Shown here one piece after another: positions 3,894 to 20,397 of a DNA stretch of 64,000 nucleotides. The notes beneath the pieces were generated by a model that was not told where the DNA came from, searched no databases, and saw only the letters and a list, made by a program, of their open reading frames with translations. Position numbers and translations under genes: made by a program. Each line of letters starts with the position of its first letter. The stretch's first letter is position 1. The stretch is from Nitrospirota bacterium (GTDB lineage: Bacteria; Nitrospirota; UBA9217): positions 1,472,001-1,536,000 of the forward strand of contig OY760142.1 in assembly GCA_963663225.1 (NCBI GenBank), in the 5' to 3' direction.

Positions 3894-4060
3894 GATCTGG
3901 AGTCCTCCCTGCTCAAACTTATTCTTTAAATGGTGATCTATTACGCATTATTAGTATAACAGCTTTTTCTCAAGAGGCCGGTCATTCCATCGTTCTGCAT
4001 TCATTGCCTGCTGATTGAATCATCTTGCATCCGGCTTCATAAATCGTGTATCATTGCGGC

Positions 4061-4528
4061 ATGGCGGAGAAAAAAGAAAACACGGCAGTTGCGACGAACC
4101 GCAAGGCCCATCACGATTACTTCATTGAAGAAACGCTTGAAGCAGGAATCGTCCTGCAGGGCACGGAGGTAAAGTCGCTGCGCCTGGGCCTCGCGAACCT
4201 GACGGACAGCTATGCCATTGTAAAGAACAATGAAGTGTTTCTTTTTAATGCGAACATCAGTCCCTATCCCCATGGCAACATCATGAACCATGAACCGCTG
4301 CGGACCCGCAAACTCCTTCTTCATCGCGAAGAGATACGAAAGCTTATCGGAAAAATAAACCAGAAGGGCTTCACGCTTGTTCCGCTCAAGATTTATTTTG
4401 CGCGCGGAAAAGCCAAGGTGCTCATCGGCCTTGCCAAAGGCAAAAAGGCGTACGACAAGCGGGAAACGATCAAAGAGAAGGAATCAAAACGCGAAGTAGA
4501 GCGCGCAGTAAAAGAGCGCAGCCGATAG
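4061..4528 (+). CDS. smpB: SsrA-binding protein
   Basis: [46 protein letters not shown]. Confidence 0.97.
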
Positions 4529-4617
4529 GTGTCCTTCCTGCCGGTGTTCCAACAATTAATCCCACAGAGCATCTGAACTTCCATGGTCGGCGCAGGAGCG
4601 CCGGCCTTTGCTATTTT

Positions 4618-4647
4618 TGATATACTGGAGGCAGGGAAAGGAGGTGA
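4618..4647 (+). promoter_or_regulatory. Extended -10 (TGaTATACT) and perfect Shine-Dalgarno (AAGGAGGTGA) for the small peptide ORF
   Basis: TGATATACT at 4618-4626; AAGGAGGTGA at 4638-4647; ATG at 4655. Confidence 0.6.
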
Positions 4648-4654
4648 GGCCGGG

Positions 4655-4777
4655 ATGAAAAAGATCGTAAGCGAGTCAGCGCTGATCAAGGAAGCTGCCC
4701 TGTGGGAGAAAATGAAGGACGCGGTTCAGAAGCATCCTGCAACGGTATGCCACAAGTGAAAGAGCTGAAAGAGTTAA
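4655..4777 (+). CDS. Putative radical-SAM-modified (seleno)peptide precursor MKKIVSESALIKEAALWEKMKDAVQKHPATVCHK(U)KS(U)KS; 34 aa (4655-4759) if the first UGA is a stop
   Basis: Translated by hand, not in the ORF track. Perfect SD; in-frame TGC(4748)-x-x-TGA(4757)-x-x-TGA(4766)-x-x-TAA(4775); hairpin 12 nt after the second TGA; directly upstream of an rSAM/SPASM gene. Confidence 0.75.
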
Positions 4778-4780
4778 AAA

Positions 4781-4813
4781 GCTGCCGGTCGGTAGCGAAA
4801 GTATCAAGGCAGC
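4781..4813 (+). promoter_or_regulatory. Candidate bacterial SECIS hairpin
   Basis: GCTGCC(4781-86)/GGCAGC(4808-13) lower stem, internal loop, GGTA/TATC upper stem, bulged G, C(GAAA)G apical loop. Function inferred from position only. Confidence 0.5.
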
Positions 4814-4886
4814 AGGAAGGCGGCATGACCGCAAAGACGTTCCGCGGCGGTCTATCCGCCTCCCTGCCCGTTTGTTATTTTCTATC

Positions 4887-4907
4887 GGCCGCCAGGGCGG
4901 CCTTTTT
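4887..4907 (+). terminator. Intrinsic terminator between the peptide gene and the rSAM gene
   Basis: GGCCGC-cagg-GCGGCC followed by TTTTT. Confidence 0.55.
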
Positions 4908-4927
4908 GCTGAGCCTGAAATCATACT

Positions 4928-5977
4928 ATGTCCATAGGCAAGGAATTCGAATTCATTATACAATGGCATCTTACAGAACGATGCAACCTGCAGTGCTCCC
5001 ACTGCTACCAGGACGGAACGCATAAGCAGGAGCTTTCGACGGATGAGGTGCGGTCCGGATTCGAAGAGCTACAGGATCTGTTTTCCGCGTGGTCGGAGAT
5101 TCACGGTCTTGTCTTGATTCCGAGCTTTAATATTACCGGAGGAGAACCGCTTCTCAGGAATGATCTCTTTGAGATTCTGGAGGACCTTGCCGGCCGCGGC
5201 TGGGAAACGTTCGTGCTCACGAATGGAACTCTCGTCAACGAGCAGATCGCCCGCCGGTTCGTCGACCTGGGCATCAAGGGCGTGCAGGTAAGTCTGGAAG
5301 GCCCTGAAGCGACGCATGATGCGCTCCGTGGACCAGGAAGCTTCCATGCCTCGCTTTCCGGCATCCGCGCGCTTCTTCGCGAAGGCGTATCGGTGACTGT
5401 CAATGCCACGCTGTCGGAGATTAATGCCGAGGGGTTTTTCGATCTTGCCGAAACAGTTGCCCGACTAGGTGTCCCGCGCCTTGGGTTCTCGCGGCTCGTG
5501 CCTTCGGGGAAAGGTGAAACGTTGGCCGGGCGCATGCTCGCTCCCGATAGAGTGCGCAGTCTGTACCAGCGGATCATTTCGCTCTCCTATGAGAGTATGA
5601 CGATGACGACGGGTGATCCCGTGGCTGCATGCATGCGTACTGCAGAAGACGGGACTGATGACCAGGGAGATGTTGCTTTTGGTGGGTGCGCGGCCGGCGT
5701 GTCAGGACTTACGATCCTATCCGACGGGACGATTGTGCCGTGCAGGCGGCTTTCCATACCGATAGGGAATATACGGACCGAGTCGGTCCGTGAGGTCTGG
5801 GCGACCTCGCCGGTGCTCGACGCACTGCGAACGCGGGCGCGCTACGAGGGGAAGTGCGGCGCTTGCAGACACTGGGCGACCTGCCGCGGATGCAGAGCGA
5901 TTGCCTTCGCCTGGTCTCTTATCCGGGGGGAGGGAAACTTCCTTTCTGATGATCCTCAGTGTTTCCTGAGAACATGA
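4928..5977 (+). CDS. Radical SAM / SPASM-domain protein (probable peptide maturase)
   Basis: QWHLTERCNLQCSHC (CxxxCxxC), TGGEPLLR, LTNGTL, QVSLEG; SPASM cysteines CAAG...VPC...IGNI...CGACRHWATCRGC...DPQC. Confidence 0.93.
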   Translation: MSIGKEFEFIIQWHLTERCNLQCSHCYQDGTHKQELSTDEVRSGFEELQDLFSAWSEIHGLVLIPSFNITGGEPLLRNDLFEILEDLAGRGWETFVLTNGTLVNEQIARRFVDLGIKGVQVSLEGPEATHDALRGPGSFHASLSGIRALLREGVSVTVNATLSEINAEGFFDLAETVARLGVPRLGFSRLVPSGKGETLAGRMLAPDRVRSLYQRIISLSYESMTMTTGDPVAACMRTAEDGTDDQGDVAFGGCAAGVSGLTILSDGTIVPCRRLSIPIGNIRTESVREVWATSPVLDALRTRARYEGKCGACRHWATCRGCRAIAFAWSLIRGEGNFLSDDPQCFLRT

Positions 5978-6030: not shown

Positions 6031-6588
6031 TTATTTATTAGCAGAGGCCTCATCTTCTTCAAGGTCGAGTTCTGCACAGAACGTGATATCAACACGTTTT
6101 CCCACCATAAATCCCCCGCCTTCGATGTCCAGATTCCAGATCATGCCGAAGTCCTCTCGTTGAATGGTGGCGGTGGCGTTAACACCGTAAGTCGTATACG
6201 TTTTATCATCGTCGGCGAAATAGGACGGTCCCAGATAGGTAACATCAAAAAGTACCGGACGGGTAATCCCGCGGATTGTAAGATTTCCGGTAACTTTTAA
6301 AAAATTCATTCCCATGACTTCTACTGCTGTGCTTTTGAACAGTATGGCGGGAGACTTATCAACGTCAAAAAAATCCTCACTCCGTAAGTGGCTGTCTCTC
6401 CGGTCCACGCCGGTATAAACGCTGGCAGCGTCGACTTCAAGCTCTATGGTTGTTGCTGCGAGTTCAGCCGGGTCAAAAAAAATTGCTCCGCTGACCTTGG
6501 TAAAGAGACCATGAACGGCTGTCACCATCATGTGACGGACAGAAAAACCCGCCGATACATGATCCGGATCGATTTTCCACTTTGGCAT
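6031..6588 (-). CDS. YceI family lipid/polyisoprenoid-binding protein
   Basis: WKIDPDH...FSVRHMMV...RDSHLRSEDFFDV...GNLTIRGITRPV. Confidence 0.92.
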   Translation of the reverse strand: MPKWKIDPDHVSAGFSVRHMMVTAVHGLFTKVSGAIFFDPAELAATTIELEVDAASVYTGVDRRDSHLRSEDFFDVDKSPAILFKSTAVEVMGMNFLKVTGNLTIRGITRPVLFDVTYLGPSYFADDDKTYTTYGVNATATIQREDFGMIWNLDIEGGGFMVGKRVDITFCAELDLEEDEASANK

Positions 6589-6791
6589 TATTATAGACCT
6601 CTCTGACCAAGTTTGGATAAAATGGTATCACACGGGAGTACTGTTTTCAAGCAGTCCCGATGATCATCCTCCTTCCCCCGGTTCTTCCCTATTCTGCTAC
6701 AATTAATGCCATCAGACACAGCAGTTTTATGAAGTCGATAAGACCCAGCTGCATCTTTAGTCATATCGCAGTGTGCAGAAGGAGGTTCAGT

Positions 6792-7598
6792 ATGAAACGA
6801 ATGGCGATTTTTTTAGCGGCAATATTTCTCGGGACATTGACCGCAGGATTAACACCGGCTGATGCGAAGGTTATAGGGAAGAATGTCGAGTATTCGGCTC
6901 AAGGCGTTGTCTTGAAAGGCTACCTCGCCTATGACAGCAAGGTTACTGCCAAACGTCCCGGCATTTTGGTGGTCCACGAGTGGTGGGGATTGAACAATTT
7001 TGCGAGGACACGTGCGCGGATGCTGGCATCGGCAGGGTATACTGCCCTTGCCGTTGATATGTACGGTGATGGAAAACAGGCCATGCATCCGGATGACGCG
7101 GGCAAGTTTTCCGGAGAAATCATGAAGAACTTTGACATCGGTAAGGCGCGGTTTCTTGCGGCTCAGGACTTTTTGAAAAAGCAGCCGACCGTTGATCCGG
7201 ACCGGATTGCGGCAATCGGATATTGTTTCGGCGGGGGAGTGGTCCTGAACATGGCGCGACAGGGTGCAGATCTTTTGGGGGTCGCAAGCTTCCACGGGAA
7301 CTTAAAGGCAGTAAAGCCAGCGGAACCGGGAATGATAAAAGCCAAAATCAGGGTATATACCGGTGGTGCTGACAAACTTGTCCCACCCGAGGCAGTAGAA
7401 GCGTTTAAACAGGAAATGACCAATGCAAAAGCTGACTACCGGGTTACCGTATATCCGGGAGCACTGCACAGCTTCACGAGTCCGGAGGCGACCAAACTCG
7501 GCAAAAAATTCAAACTGCCGATGGCCTACAATGCAAACGCTGATGTGGAGTCCTGGAAAGATCTGATGAAATTTTTGAACGAAATTTTCAAGAAATAA
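6792..7598 (+). CDS. Dienelactone hydrolase family protein, exported
   Basis: GGAGG RBS at 6781, signal peptide, VVHEWWGLN, GYCFGG nucleophile motif, YPGALHSF. Confidence 0.92.
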   Translation: MKRMAIFLAAIFLGTLTAGLTPADAKVIGKNVEYSAQGVVLKGYLAYDSKVTAKRPGILVVHEWWGLNNFARTRARMLASAGYTALAVDMYGDGKQAMHPDDAGKFSGEIMKNFDIGKARFLAAQDFLKKQPTVDPDRIAAIGYCFGGGVVLNMARQGADLLGVASFHGNLKAVKPAEPGMIKAKIRVYTGGADKLVPPEAVEAFKQEMTNAKADYRVTVYPGALHSFTSPEATKLGKKFKLPMAYNANADVESWKDLMKFLNEIFKK

Positions 7599-18369: not shown

Positions 18370-20397
18370 ATGGCTCATAAACTTACTACCTGCACGTTCT
18401 GCGGCGTCGGCTGCGGGCTTTATCTGGAAACCTCCGGCAACCACGTTGTGGGCGTCTCTCCGAGTATTTCTCATCCTGCAAACGAGGGAAGAATATGCAT
18501 CCGCGGCTGGAACGTGCACGAAGTCATCAGTTCTCCGGATCGTCTGAGAAGGCCGCTGCTCAGAAAGAGAGGCGCCCTTCGGGAGGTGGAGTGGGACGAG
18601 GCAATTTCATTTATCGCCTCCCGTCTGGAAAAAATCAGGGACAAATACGGCCCTGATTCAATAGCGCTGCTGAATTCCCCCCGGTGCTCTAACGAGGAAG
18701 CCTACCTGCTTCAGAAGCTGGCGCGAACGGTCATCCAGACCAATAATGTGGACCACGGTGCGGGAGTTTACAGCAATTATTCAATTGATGTCCTGCTTGA
18801 GATGCTTGGGGTGTCGGCCAGCACCAGCTCTTTTGAAGACTTGTCCCACAGCGACGTTATCATTTCGGCCGGCGTTGACCTGGCCCAAAAAATGCCCACG
18901 CTCGGAGGGACGGTCATCCGGGCAAAGCTGAAAGGCGCGAAGCTTATCATTGTTGATGAACGCCGCCATCGGGTGGCGGAAAGCGCCGATTTGTTTCTTC
19001 AGATCAAACCCGGCACGGATGTCCAGCTTTTCGGCGCCATGGCGAAAGTGGTCGTTGACCACGGCCTGATGAACCTGCCGTTTATCAAGATGTCTTGCCG
19101 AAATTATCAGGAGCTCCTTGCAGCCGTGGCGAGCTATGATCTGCTTGAGGCCGCCGATGCCTGCGGTGTTCCGGCAGAGCTCATCGAGGCCGCCGCACTG
19201 GCGTATGCCCGCGCAAAATCCGCAACGCTGCTGTACTCCACCGGAATCCGGGCGCGTGATGTGGAATCGATTATGGCCAAGGTGAATCTTGCCCTTCTGT
19301 GCGGCCAGGTCGGCAGGAAAGGGGCCGGCATCTTCGCCCTGACGGAGCATAATAATCTGCAGGGGGTCTGCGACATGGGAGTGCTGCCGGACCGCTTGCC
19401 GGGCTACCGTCCGGTCGCGAGCGAAACGGCACGGGCAGAATTCGAAAAAATCTGGAAAACAAAAATTCCCGCACACCCCGGAGTGTCCGCACAGCCGGTG
19501 CTGAAGGACCGCGCCAACGGTACGATCCGGGCCGTATGGCTCTGCCGCTACGATCCTGTCAGCTCCGCTTTCTTCGGTGACGTTGAAAATTCACTGCAGC
19601 AGTGCGATCTTGTGGTCCTGCAGCATGTATACCGGAATAAAACAGCCGATTATGCCCATGTGGTTTTGCCGACAGCCGTGTTCGGAGAGGAGCAGATTAC
19701 CTTTACCAATGCGGAAAGGCGTATCCAGCTTGCGACACAGGTCATTGATCCTCCGGACGGAATCACCTCTGCATGGCAGCAGATTGTACAGGTGGCAAAG
19801 GCGATGGGCGTGGATTGGAAATACCGGTCCTCGGCCGATGTAATGAACGAGATCGGACGGGTGGTGCCGTTCTACAGTGGTGCAAGCTACGACAACCTGG
19901 CCCGCGAGTACGGCCGCCAGTGGCCTTGTACCACGGACCGGCCGCTCGGCACGCCCCGCCTTTTTACGGAGGATAGCAACGATCAACCATTCAAATTTCT
20001 ACCTGTCGAGAAAAAGCTTCAGCCAATCCTTACGGATAAAGAATATCCGTTCATGCTGATTTTCGGGCATACCCTTTACTACTGGCACCAGAACGTATTT
20101 ATTCTCCGCAGCGAGACGCTCAAACGTGAATATATCGTTCTCCTGAATGATTATCCCGGCGGTTTCGCGGAAATCAATGAGAAGGACGCGAAACAGCTCG
20201 GTGTCCGGAACGGCGATACGATACGGCTGCGCTCCCCCAACGGTTCCGCGGTCACCCTGGCGAGGGTCACCCCTGAAGTGCGCAGCGGCAGCGTGTTCGT
20301 GCCCTACTTTGTCAGGCAGGTTCGGAACCAGATGTGCGGCAGCACGGAGTTCGATTGCCGGCTGGTGCCTGTCCGCGTGGAAAAGGAGGCGGAATGA
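18370..20397 (+). CDS. FdhF-like molybdopterin-oxidoreductase-fold subunit, catalytically degenerate
   Basis: N-terminal 4Fe-4S motif CTFCGVGC...C; SNEE.Y..QKLAR, HNNLQGVCDMG and TNAERRIQ; NNVDHGAGVYS where FdhF has NNVD.CARx(C/U)H. Confidence 0.88.
   Translation: MAHKLTTCTFCGVGCGLYLETSGNHVVGVSPSISHPANEGRICIRGWNVHEVISSPDRLRRPLLRKRGALREVEWDEAISFIASRLEKIRDKYGPDSIALLNSPRCSNEEAYLLQKLARTVIQTNNVDHGAGVYSNYSIDVLLEMLGVSASTSSFEDLSHSDVIISAGVDLAQKMPTLGGTVIRAKLKGAKLIIVDERRHRVAESADLFLQIKPGTDVQLFGAMAKVVVDHGLMNLPFIKMSCRNYQELLAAVASYDLLEAADACGVPAELIEAAALAYARAKSATLLYSTGIRARDVESIMAKVNLALLCGQVGRKGAGIFALTEHNNLQGVCDMGVLPDRLPGYRPVASETARAEFEKIWKTKIPAHPGVSAQPVLKDRANGTIRAVWLCRYDPVSSAFFGDVENSLQQCDLVVLQHVYRNKTADYAHVVLPTAVFGEEQITFTNAERRIQLATQVIDPPDGITSAWQQIVQVAKAMGVDWKYRSSADVMNEIGRVVPFYSGASYDNLAREYGRQWPCTTDRPLGTPRLFTEDSNDQPFKFLPVEKKLQPILTDKEYPFMLIFGHTLYYWHQNVFILRSETLKREYIVLLNDYPGGFAEINEKDAKQLGVRNGDTIRLRSPNGSAVTLARVTPEVRSGSVFVPYFVRQVRNQMCGSTEFDCRLVPVRVEKEAE

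Follow-up and report, generated by a model that had tools for sequence, protein, structure and literature searches.

Among the sources covered, one system of peptides made by the ribosome and modified after translation (RiPPs) that contains selenocysteine (Sec) has been described, SbtA/SbtM of Geobacter. SbtM, a radical S-adenosylmethionine (SAM) enzyme with a SPASM domain, oxidises Cys or Sec to a thio(seleno)oxazole according to the covered sections of its report (PMC9204691), and the covered part of the prokaryotic selenoprotein table in a 2026 review enters SbtA as 'Selenobacteriocin TIGR04081 SGUG 2' (PMC13188914). PapB and Tte1186, two SPASM thioether synthases, accept Sec at the cross-link site, where selenium binds the iron of an auxiliary cluster before a Se-C bond is formed, as far as the covered sections of the report describe it (PMC10177961). 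Here I describe a locus in a window of 64,000 nt (the whole stretch of DNA analysed, positions 1,472,001 to 1,536,000 of contig OY760142.1 from a Nitrospirota bacterium), in which an unannotated short gene with two in-frame TGAs precedes a gene for a radical SAM/SPASM enzyme. The best explanation of this arrangement, to which I give a probability of about 0.72, is a peptide with two Sec, decoded via a single Sec insertion sequence (SECIS), that docks on the adjoining enzyme and is modified by it. It would form another family of Sec-containing peptides associated with radical SAM enzymes, the second after SbtA/SbtM, to which it is unrelated, and by far the more widespread of the two.

As judged from the covered sections of the SbtM report (PMC9204691), the locus has in common with SbtA/SbtM a SECIS and a ribosomally made precursor in which Sec is encoded by UGA and probably occurs at least twice, a three-cluster radical SAM/SPASM enzyme, and an occurrence in anaerobic Desulfobacterota. 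However, none of 49 aligned peptides of the present family matches TIGR04081, and the context of Sec is K-U-K here, but G-U-G in SbtA. The enzyme reaches 146.2 bits with the SbtM model TIGR04082, for which the cut-off is 350, and aligns to model positions 199-505 of 516 only, the N-terminal ~200 residues of SbtM being missing here; the present family is moreover mainly found in Nitrospirota (54 of the best 80 loci). An initial annotation of the locus, made from the sequence alone, had already held it to be distinct from SbtA/SbtM, and the scores bear this out. SkfB, CteB, PapB and Tte1186 resemble the enzyme in the CxxxCxxC motif and the Cys of the SPASM region, the closest solved sequences and folds are of the sacti-/ranthipeptide type, and in both cases Cys-type residues lie near the C-terminus of the substrate. 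In contrast to these maturases, the enzyme lacks an RRE, scores 76 bits against 340 for PapB and 103 against 625 for StsB, and its natural substrate would contain Sec, with no Cys versions known; a cross-link is conjectural here. The anaerobic sulfatase-maturating enzymes (anSME) are of similar size, have a SPASM fold and no RRE, bind their substrate peptide directly, as is modelled here, and act on the beta-carbon of Cys. They have eight auxiliary-cluster Cys, whereas seven are found here, and the partner is a dedicated small peptide and not a sulfatase, without a C/S-x-P-x-R motif in its core. A small precursor that is conserved including its core, a SPASM radical SAM enzyme, the lack of export and immunity genes, and a patchy but tightly coupled spread are also known from pyrroloquinoline quinone (PQQ)/PqqE and mycofactocin/MftC, but those pathways need an RRE protein (PqqD or MftB) and tailoring enzymes, none of which is conserved here. 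Finally, several bacterial selenoproteins with a UxxU motif (Prx-like oxidoreductase, the putative metal-binding NF041115 and the FmdB family) are listed in the covered part of the selenoprotein table (PMC13188914) and thus give a precedent for two UGAs 9 nt apart; in those cases, however, the motif belongs to a domain of a larger protein for which Cys homologues exist, whereas here it is found in a peptide of 40 residues that has one more Cys upstream, a radical SAM enzyme dedicated to it and no homologue with Cys.

The initial annotation had pointed to a Shine-Dalgarno sequence followed by an unlisted open reading frame (ORF), and both are present in the sequence as described (Table 1). Up to the first TGA the ORF encodes MKKIVSESALIKEAALWEKMKDAVQKHPATVCHK, followed by TGA(4757)-K-S-TGA(4766)-K-S-TAA(4775); written in full it is MKKIVSESALIKEAALWEKMKDAVQKHPATV-C(4748-4750)-H-K-TGA(4757-4759)-K-S-TGA(4766-4768)-K-S-TAA(4775-4777), a conserved leader (KEAAxW…NPG) and a core C32-H-K-U35-K-S-U38-K-S, of which C32 is the sole Cys. 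In agreement with the same annotation, the TGAs stand three and six codons past this Cys in a 9-nt repeat (TGAAAGAGC/TGAAAGAGT, 4757-4774), and the ORF of the enzyme starts 150 nt after the TAA. The GGAGGTGA-N6/7-ATG layout recurs in most of 21 homologous loci, with three (L018, L019 and L025) differing in sequence or spacing.

Table 1. Features of the locus, in window positions unless a contig is given.
Feature	Position	Strand	Remarks
smpB	4046-4528		upstream of peptide gene; profile matches
Terminator-like hairpin and T-run	4585-4615	+	divides smpB from peptide gene; stem of 9 pairs (8 G-C), then TTTGCTATTT
Shine-Dalgarno aaaGGAGGTGA	4637-4647	+	7 nt before ATG at 4655; GGAGGTGA portion at 4640-4647
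Precursor peptide gene (putative)	4655-4777	+	40 codons and TAA; absent from annotation
First in-frame TGA (candidate Sec35)	4757-4759	+	next K codon AAG/AAA
Second in-frame TGA (candidate Sec38)	4766-4768	+	followed by K (AAG/AAA), S (AGC/AGT/TCT) and stop
SECIS-like hairpin GCUGCC-GGUC-GGUAGC	4781-4796	+	3' untranslated region (UTR); loop 4787-4790
Long imperfect stem-loop, terminator/attenuator-like	4797-4882	+	U-rich 3' side; fold of 4757-4927: z = -2.99
Second terminator-like hairpin	4887-4907	+	GGCCGCC-AGG-GCGGCC and TTTTT; 6 G-C pairs, 4-nt loop, T-run; stem 4887-4902
Radical SAM/SPASM enzyme	4928-5977	+	349 aa; C19-x3-C23-x2-C26; seven SPASM-region Cys (C254, C272, C310, C313, C319, C322, C345)
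YceI-like gene	6031-6588	-	convergent with radical SAM gene; PF04264, 156 bits
selD and three genes for molybdopterin oxidoreductases, one in-frame TGA each	C1:522565-523479, C1:843250-844521, C1:2662859-2664247, C1:2669680-2670960		outside window

Orthologues of the enzyme were searched for in 60 relatives and in the window's own genome, and were found, with 51-58% identity, in 21 of the 61 genomes, all from the same family; 20 of the 21 enzyme genes are preceded, at 120-370 nt, by the same small ORF. Species-representative genomes, scanned with an enzyme alignment (A1), gave at least 573 relatives, of which the best 80 were kept. According to their labels, Nitrospirota or the Thermodesulfovibrionia type account for 54 of these, Desulfobacterota or 'delta' (Desulfobulbaceae, Desulfobaccales, Geobacter) for 21, and others for 5. 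A nucleotide profile of the peptide locus (nhmmer) matches 87 of the 102 loci, so the conserved peptide upstream of the enzyme, on which the initial annotation had built its case, is indeed kept by the homologues. Of the 15 loci left unmatched, 3 have less than 200 nt of upstream sequence and 12 have at least 694 nt. After removal of four duplicates there are 84 distinct hits, 82 with a recognisable core and two degenerate ones (L051 and L070). In all, the whole arrangement is seen in 82 distinct loci, which come from Nitrospirota, Desulfobacterota and other groups, far beyond chance. In one Desulfobacterota-type locus (L064) two near-identical peptide genes, at 835-1000 and 2640-2804, lie about 1.8 kb apart upstream of a single radical SAM gene.

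The stop codons in these 82 loci follow two different patterns. The first internal site is TGA in all of them (TAA 0, TAG 0) and the second in 81, with one TAA (L095) and no TAG, so that an exchange of the internal TGAs for other stops, which the initial annotation had asked to be looked for, is seen once, at the second site. The terminal stop, by contrast, is TAA in 40, TGA in 31 and TAG in 11 loci; it follows directly on the core in 65 (TAA 30, TGA 30, TAG 5), after one extra sense codon in 15, and after two in 2. As this stop is kept, and yet switches among all three codons, ribosomes must reach it. The mismatches at codon positions 1, 2 and 3 (n = 81) also point to translation: they amount to 0/1/12 for the K after U1, 17/10/32 for the residue that follows this K, 0/0/9 for the K after U2, and 8/18/26 for the final Ser, which is written AGC, AGT or TCT and thus shows a switch from AGY to TCT. 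Wobble-type variation at third positions therefore goes on past both TGAs (sums of 25, 29 and 79 over the four sense codons), and the reading frame is conserved beyond them. The leader shows ordinary synonymous variation, with several Ala codons writing KEAAxW, and M1, E13, C32, K34, U35, U38 and K39 are invariant in the 49 aligned peptides (alignment A2).

The hairpin that the initial annotation had placed 12 nt past the second TGA (GCTGCC-GGTC-GGTAGC) has its loop at nt 22-25 counted from the U of the second UGA and at nt 31-34 from that of the first. Over 80 distinct sequences its six base pairs can form in 98.5% of 480 cells, and two of the six show double changes (C-G 42 / U-A 36, and U-A 65 / C-G 9); the covariation score was reached by none of 500 shuffles, and controls in which the arms were slid collapse. 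The loop, GGUC and in some loci GGUUC or GGUCA, starts at a distance of 19-22 nt from U2 in 76 of the 82 loci and of 24-27 nt in 4, while the distance from UGA1 to the loop is 28-31 nt. The hairpin lies wholly 3' of the stop codon, and this one hairpin must serve both UGAs, 9 nt apart. In fdhF of E. coli, the G and U contacted by SelB are at positions 23 and 24. Known Sec genes of the window's genome served as controls, as a crude genome-wide scan for a TGA followed by a GGTY-loop hairpin was too noisy to be used. In an FdhA-like selenoprotein gene (…CARYUHSAT…) the loop, also GGUC, is at nt 22-25, which equals the geometry at the second UGA of the peptide; in selD the loop is GUU and is found at nt 24-26. 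The hidden C-x-x-U-x-x-U peptide with Sec decoding that was claimed initially is thus supported by TGA conservation, codon periodicity and a covarying hairpin, and on this comparative sequence evidence the peptide very probably carries two selenocysteines.

The genome of the window, a single contig of 3.255 Mb, has the machinery for which a check had been proposed: selA (597 bits) adjacent to selB (376 bits), a selD with an in-frame TGA inside, and a tRNA-Sec with anticodon tca. In at least three molybdopterin oxidoreductase genes one in-frame TGA each is found, which together with that in selD points to a sizeable selenoproteome in this organism. Within the window, a gene for a molybdopterin oxidoreductase at 18541-19800, with an open frame of 678 aa, has no in-frame TGA. 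In the 21 peptide-bearing relatives selA was found in 17, and 2 more have a selD with TGA.

The outcome was different for Cys versions of the peptide. A profile of the 49 peptides, with U passed as C, had 112 hits (E <= 1e-3) among 1.84 billion protein representatives. In 108 of them the best stretch ends at profile position 33 or 34, just before the first TGA; the hits are gene calls of about 34 aa that end in C-x-K and are cut at this codon. Only one hit (P0001) spans positions 35-40, and this one has W at all three TGAs and runs into the hairpin, to give 49 aa; it presumably is a code-4-type call from a metagenome-assembled genome (MAG) annotated with TGA=Trp. The other 61 inspected hits stop before the TGAs or run into unrelated sequence, and P0052 is an unrelated protein. 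The alignment of TGA with TGC, i.e. CxxCxxC variants, that the initial annotation had expected was not found among the 112 hits in 1.84 billion representatives, which suggests that selenium is indispensable here.

These gene calls of exactly 34 aa could also be taken at face value, with translation stopping at the first UGA to give a Cys peptide ending in …CHK, and with the downstream UGAAAGGGCUGAAAGAGC and the hairpin serving as an RNA stability or regulatory element. The missing Cys variants aligned with the TGAs and the strong nucleotide-level conservation of the downstream stretch would fit such a view. I nevertheless consider it very unlikely, as the codon periodicity past the first TGA, including the Ser switch, is that of a translated sequence, and as an in-frame stop of any kind is kept just before the hairpin, which is meaningful only if ribosomes arrive there. 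Furthermore, a plain stop should vary like the terminal one, yet the first site is TGA throughout, and the geometry of the hairpin equals that of the genome's own Sec gene.

The enzyme scores above the cut-offs of PF04055 (Radical_SAM, 72.6 bits) and PF13186 (SPASM, 40.1 bits), with Fer4_12 below threshold. As the initial annotation had surmised, Pfam shows no RRE or PqqD domain in it, and no conserved neighbour of that kind was found. The C19/C23/C26 motif and the seven C-terminal Cys are invariant in alignment A1. No NCBIfam model has its cut-off reached, further scores being 171 bits against 400 for the ACGX-system radical SAM protein and 148 against 515 for TIGR04051. The closest solved sequences are SkfB (4e-26), PqqE, anSME and CteB. 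An AlphaFold model (predicted local distance difference test, pLDDT, 86; predicted template modelling score, pTM, 0.87) has SkfB, BlsE, SuiB, anSME, ChlB, CteB and PqqE as its closest folds. Because both the closest sequences and the closest folds are peptide-modifying SPASM enzymes, it probably works like one of these, in no named family. The scores do not place it among the heme-modifying enzymes of the AhbD/NirJ kind, as TIGR04545, TIGR04055 and TIGR04051 all stay far below their equivalog cut-offs.

In the 61 genomes, 21 have both the peptide and the enzyme, 38 have neither, one has the enzyme only (G011), and one (G005) has the peptide 83 nt from a contig end; as related genomes are not independent, no co-occurrence statistic is given. 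The spread is patchy within the family, e.g. 2-3 of 5 genomes in the window's genus, and since it is patchy but matched, both genes seem to have been gained and lost together. The two need not be neighbours: five genomes with no peptide beside the enzyme gene were tested, and four of them carry elsewhere a peptide gene that is complete, with both TGAs, stop and hairpin; in 3 of these 4 the next gene is convergent to it, which argues against a cis-regulatory leader.

Such a leader would be a selenium sensor, in which stalling of ribosomes at the two UGAs and the stem-loops downstream control the radical SAM gene, as amino-acid attenuators do. Two rare-signal codons close together in a short ORF would suit this idea, as would the two terminator-like structures between the ORF and the radical SAM gene, and in some folds the SECIS hairpin can also pair, with its 5' arm, to GGCAG… at the 5' base of the long stem. 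However, the amino acid sequence of the leader is conserved across phyla, unlike that of typical attenuator peptides, the unlinked ORFs weigh strongly, a convergent neighbour leaves nothing to be regulated in cis, and the peptide is predicted to bind the enzyme. On account of the unlinked ORFs, the convergent neighbours and the conserved leader I set attenuation aside as the main explanation and regard it as extremely unlikely.

The predicted binding comes from a model of the complex, computed from the enzyme alignment A1, the 34-residue peptide as called with translation table 11 (A4), three 4Fe-4S clusters and SAM. The interface score ipSAE was 0.88, 0.89 and 0.88 in three runs, while the best of three controls reached 0.01; of 80 solved complexes 58 reach the mark for this score, as against 2 of 110 mismatched pairs, a calibration that is rough here given the own alignments and the riding ligands. 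At least 92% of the contacts agree between runs, with a partner pLDDT of at least 80. In the modelled interface conserved residues meet, E13 of the peptide with R288, W17 with W55 and residue 59, and residue 16 with R301, and residues 29-34 contact S66, N68, N159, S188, T228-P231 (TGDP 228-231), G252-C254 (GGC) and R274, all in invariant stretches of the barrel and the SPASM region. The model supports that the enzyme binds the peptide, and suggests that the leader contacts the SPASM region directly, without an RRE. The functional pairing with the downstream radical SAM/SPASM enzyme that had been claimed from the sequence is upheld by the comparative evidence, the co-occurrence and this predicted complex.

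From what was computed, i.e. conservation, the signature of Sec decoding, the SECIS, co-occurrence and predicted binding, I infer Sec insertion, a reaction and a role along the following lines. The stand-alone gene (4655-4777) would be translated into a 40-residue peptide with both UGAs read as selenocysteine, SelB and Sec-tRNA being recruited by the single SECIS hairpin just past the stop codon. As a helical leader, the N-terminal 30 residues would dock directly on the enzyme at its SPASM side, without an RRE, and this docking would feed the C-terminal C-x-K-U-K-x-U-K-x core to the active site. There, by analogy with PapB and Tte1186, a Cys or Sec of the core may bind the open iron of an auxiliary cluster, and the 5'-deoxyadenosyl radical, acting on this core, would take a hydrogen atom. 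The most likely outcome would be a carbon-chalcogen cross-link (a selenoether or thioether, as in sacti- and ranthipeptides); alternatively, the beta-carbon of Cys or Sec may be oxidised, as in anSME and SbtM, to give a heterocycle. One may speculate that K34, K36 and K39, which flank the Sec residues, are cross-link acceptors or recognition elements. No conserved transporter, protease or immunity gene was found near the radical SAM gene in 80 loci, and as there is no such transporter or protease, I hold a selenium-based peptide or cofactor with a redox or metal-binding function inside the cell to be likelier than a secreted antibiotic. A bolder version, which I put forward tentatively and at somewhat less than even odds, is that of an obligately selenium-dependent peptide cofactor or metallophore, tailored by the radical SAM enzyme with Se-C cross-links or Se-heterocycles, for which there is no sulfur version, encoded with two UGAs and one SECIS in the 3' UTR, and widespread in anaerobic Nitrospirota (Thermodesulfovibrionia-type) and Desulfobacterota.

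The selenoprotein may also be real without being the substrate of a RiPP enzyme, acting either as an unmodified redox or metal-binding peptide, or as a partner of the radical SAM enzyme (selenium donor, electron donor or cluster ligand) in work on a non-peptide substrate. The best hidden Markov model scores of the enzyme are with tetrapyrrole enzymes of the AhbD/NirJ2 type, but lie far below the cut-off (187 against 500 bits in the case of AhbD). The peptide gene is equipped with terminators of its own and in many cases not linked to the radical SAM gene, conservation extends over leader and core alike, an uncommon trait among antibiotic RiPPs, and C-x-x-U-x-x-U resembles metal-binding motifs, with UxxU metal-binding selenoproteins among those in the covered part of the selenoprotein table (PMC13188914). 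Yet the co-occurrence of the peptide with the radical SAM enzyme is tight, the modelled complex threads residues 29-34 toward invariant active-site residues, and the closest solved relatives modify peptides, for which reasons I think this explanation unlikely.

A number of observations weigh against a modified peptide with two Sec. The weakest link of the argument for Sec is the first UGA, whose efficient decoding by the same SECIS over a distance of 28-31 nt is plausible and assumed here, at a spacing longer than the optimum in E. coli. Most selenoprotein families have Cys forms, and this usual cross-check is missing from the present one. Neither selA nor selB was found in 4 of the 21 peptide-bearing relatives (completeness 89, 96, 63 and 86%); an in-frame TGA in the selD of 2 of these implies the Sec trait, and in the other two, MAGs of 63% and 86% completeness, no selA, selB or TGA-bearing selD was found. 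An adjacent peptide is truly lacking in 12 of the 99 loci with enough upstream sequence, and the genome with the enzyme only (G011), in which no peptide was detected, is 100% complete. In L051 (2849-2903) most of the leader is deleted and the frame of the ATG is out of step with the C-H-K-U-K-S-U core, and in L070 (168-313), a degenerate copy, the first Sec position is a true stop. The locus with TAA for the second TGA (L095, 2745-2922; …CRKUSS-stop) keeps the first TGA and the hairpin, with the loop about 31 nt from UGA1; it would be a variant with a single Sec or else a gene in decay. The modelled peptide of 34 residues ends before the first Sec, and the placement of the Sec residues lies outside the model. 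Two terminator-like structures separate the peptide gene from the radical SAM gene, so co-transcription is not obvious, and the best NCBIfam scores are those of heme-modifying enzymes (AhbD, TIGR04545, 187 bits against 500; NirJ2, TIGR04055, 174 against 500).

In NCBIfam (release 20) no match was found for the window peptide or the 49 homologues, and the window peptide has no match in Pfam either. The peptide/enzyme family is not described in the literature covered, including the covered part of the prokaryotic selenoprotein table (PMC13188914), with prior naming possible in selenoproteome supplements, which were not covered; nor was it found in the covered parts of BSepDB and of the preprint by Haft and Gwadz. 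Short strings of the hairpin matched only unrelated primers in the literature. The family counts at least 573 relatives of the enzyme in species-representative genomes and 112 clusters of the peptide at 50% identity; it is invisible to annotation, as gene callers truncate the peptide at the first UGA. The missing Cys version argues that selenium is chemically indispensable, which would make this a good place to look for chemistry beyond that of sulfur. The locus furthermore offers a natural case in which to test how one SECIS, lying wholly in the 3' UTR, serves two UGAs at a distance of 9 nt, and how a SPASM enzyme without an RRE recognises a leader; with 40 and 349 aa, substrate and enzyme are of a size that permits direct in vitro work.

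Around the peptide gene, terminator-like structures are found on both sides (4585-4606 upstream; 4797-4882 and 4887-4902 downstream), and it looks like a transcription unit of its own, perhaps with read-through. A strong stem with a T-run follows the SECIS-like hairpin in 67 of the 82 homologous loci, the conserved GGCAGATATG being the 5' base of the long stem. The base of this stem is conserved in sequence (GGCAGATATG … CATATCTGCC) and resembles the 3' arm of the SECIS hairpin; it could alternatively pair with the SECIS 5' arm, as some single-sequence folds choose, in what is possibly a structural switch. Rfam has no match in the window at gathering score, and between 4600 and 4930 only chance-level ones (E >= 0.18), none of them from a SECIS family. 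As the ORF follows smpB, a tmRNA was also considered, but ARAGORN finds none in the window, and the tmRNA of this genome is at C1:1634374-1634725.

A YceI-like ORF just downstream of the radical SAM gene occurs in 18 of 80 other loci and is thus recurrent but not constant; in the window it is followed by a gene of the dienelactone-hydrolase family (6660-7598; PF01738, 160.7 bits). A membrane methyltransferase resembling ICMT/PEMT (PF04191, 53 bits; L043:4043-4621) lies on the same strand just downstream of the radical SAM gene in 18 of the 80 loci and could be a tailoring enzyme for carboxyl- or Se-methylation, and a redoxin is found near the radical SAM gene in 6 of the 80. In most of the loci without an adjacent peptide, a gene of the 'phage holin IV' family with four transmembrane segments (PF04020; e.g. 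L047:2599-2991) is located directly upstream of the radical SAM gene.

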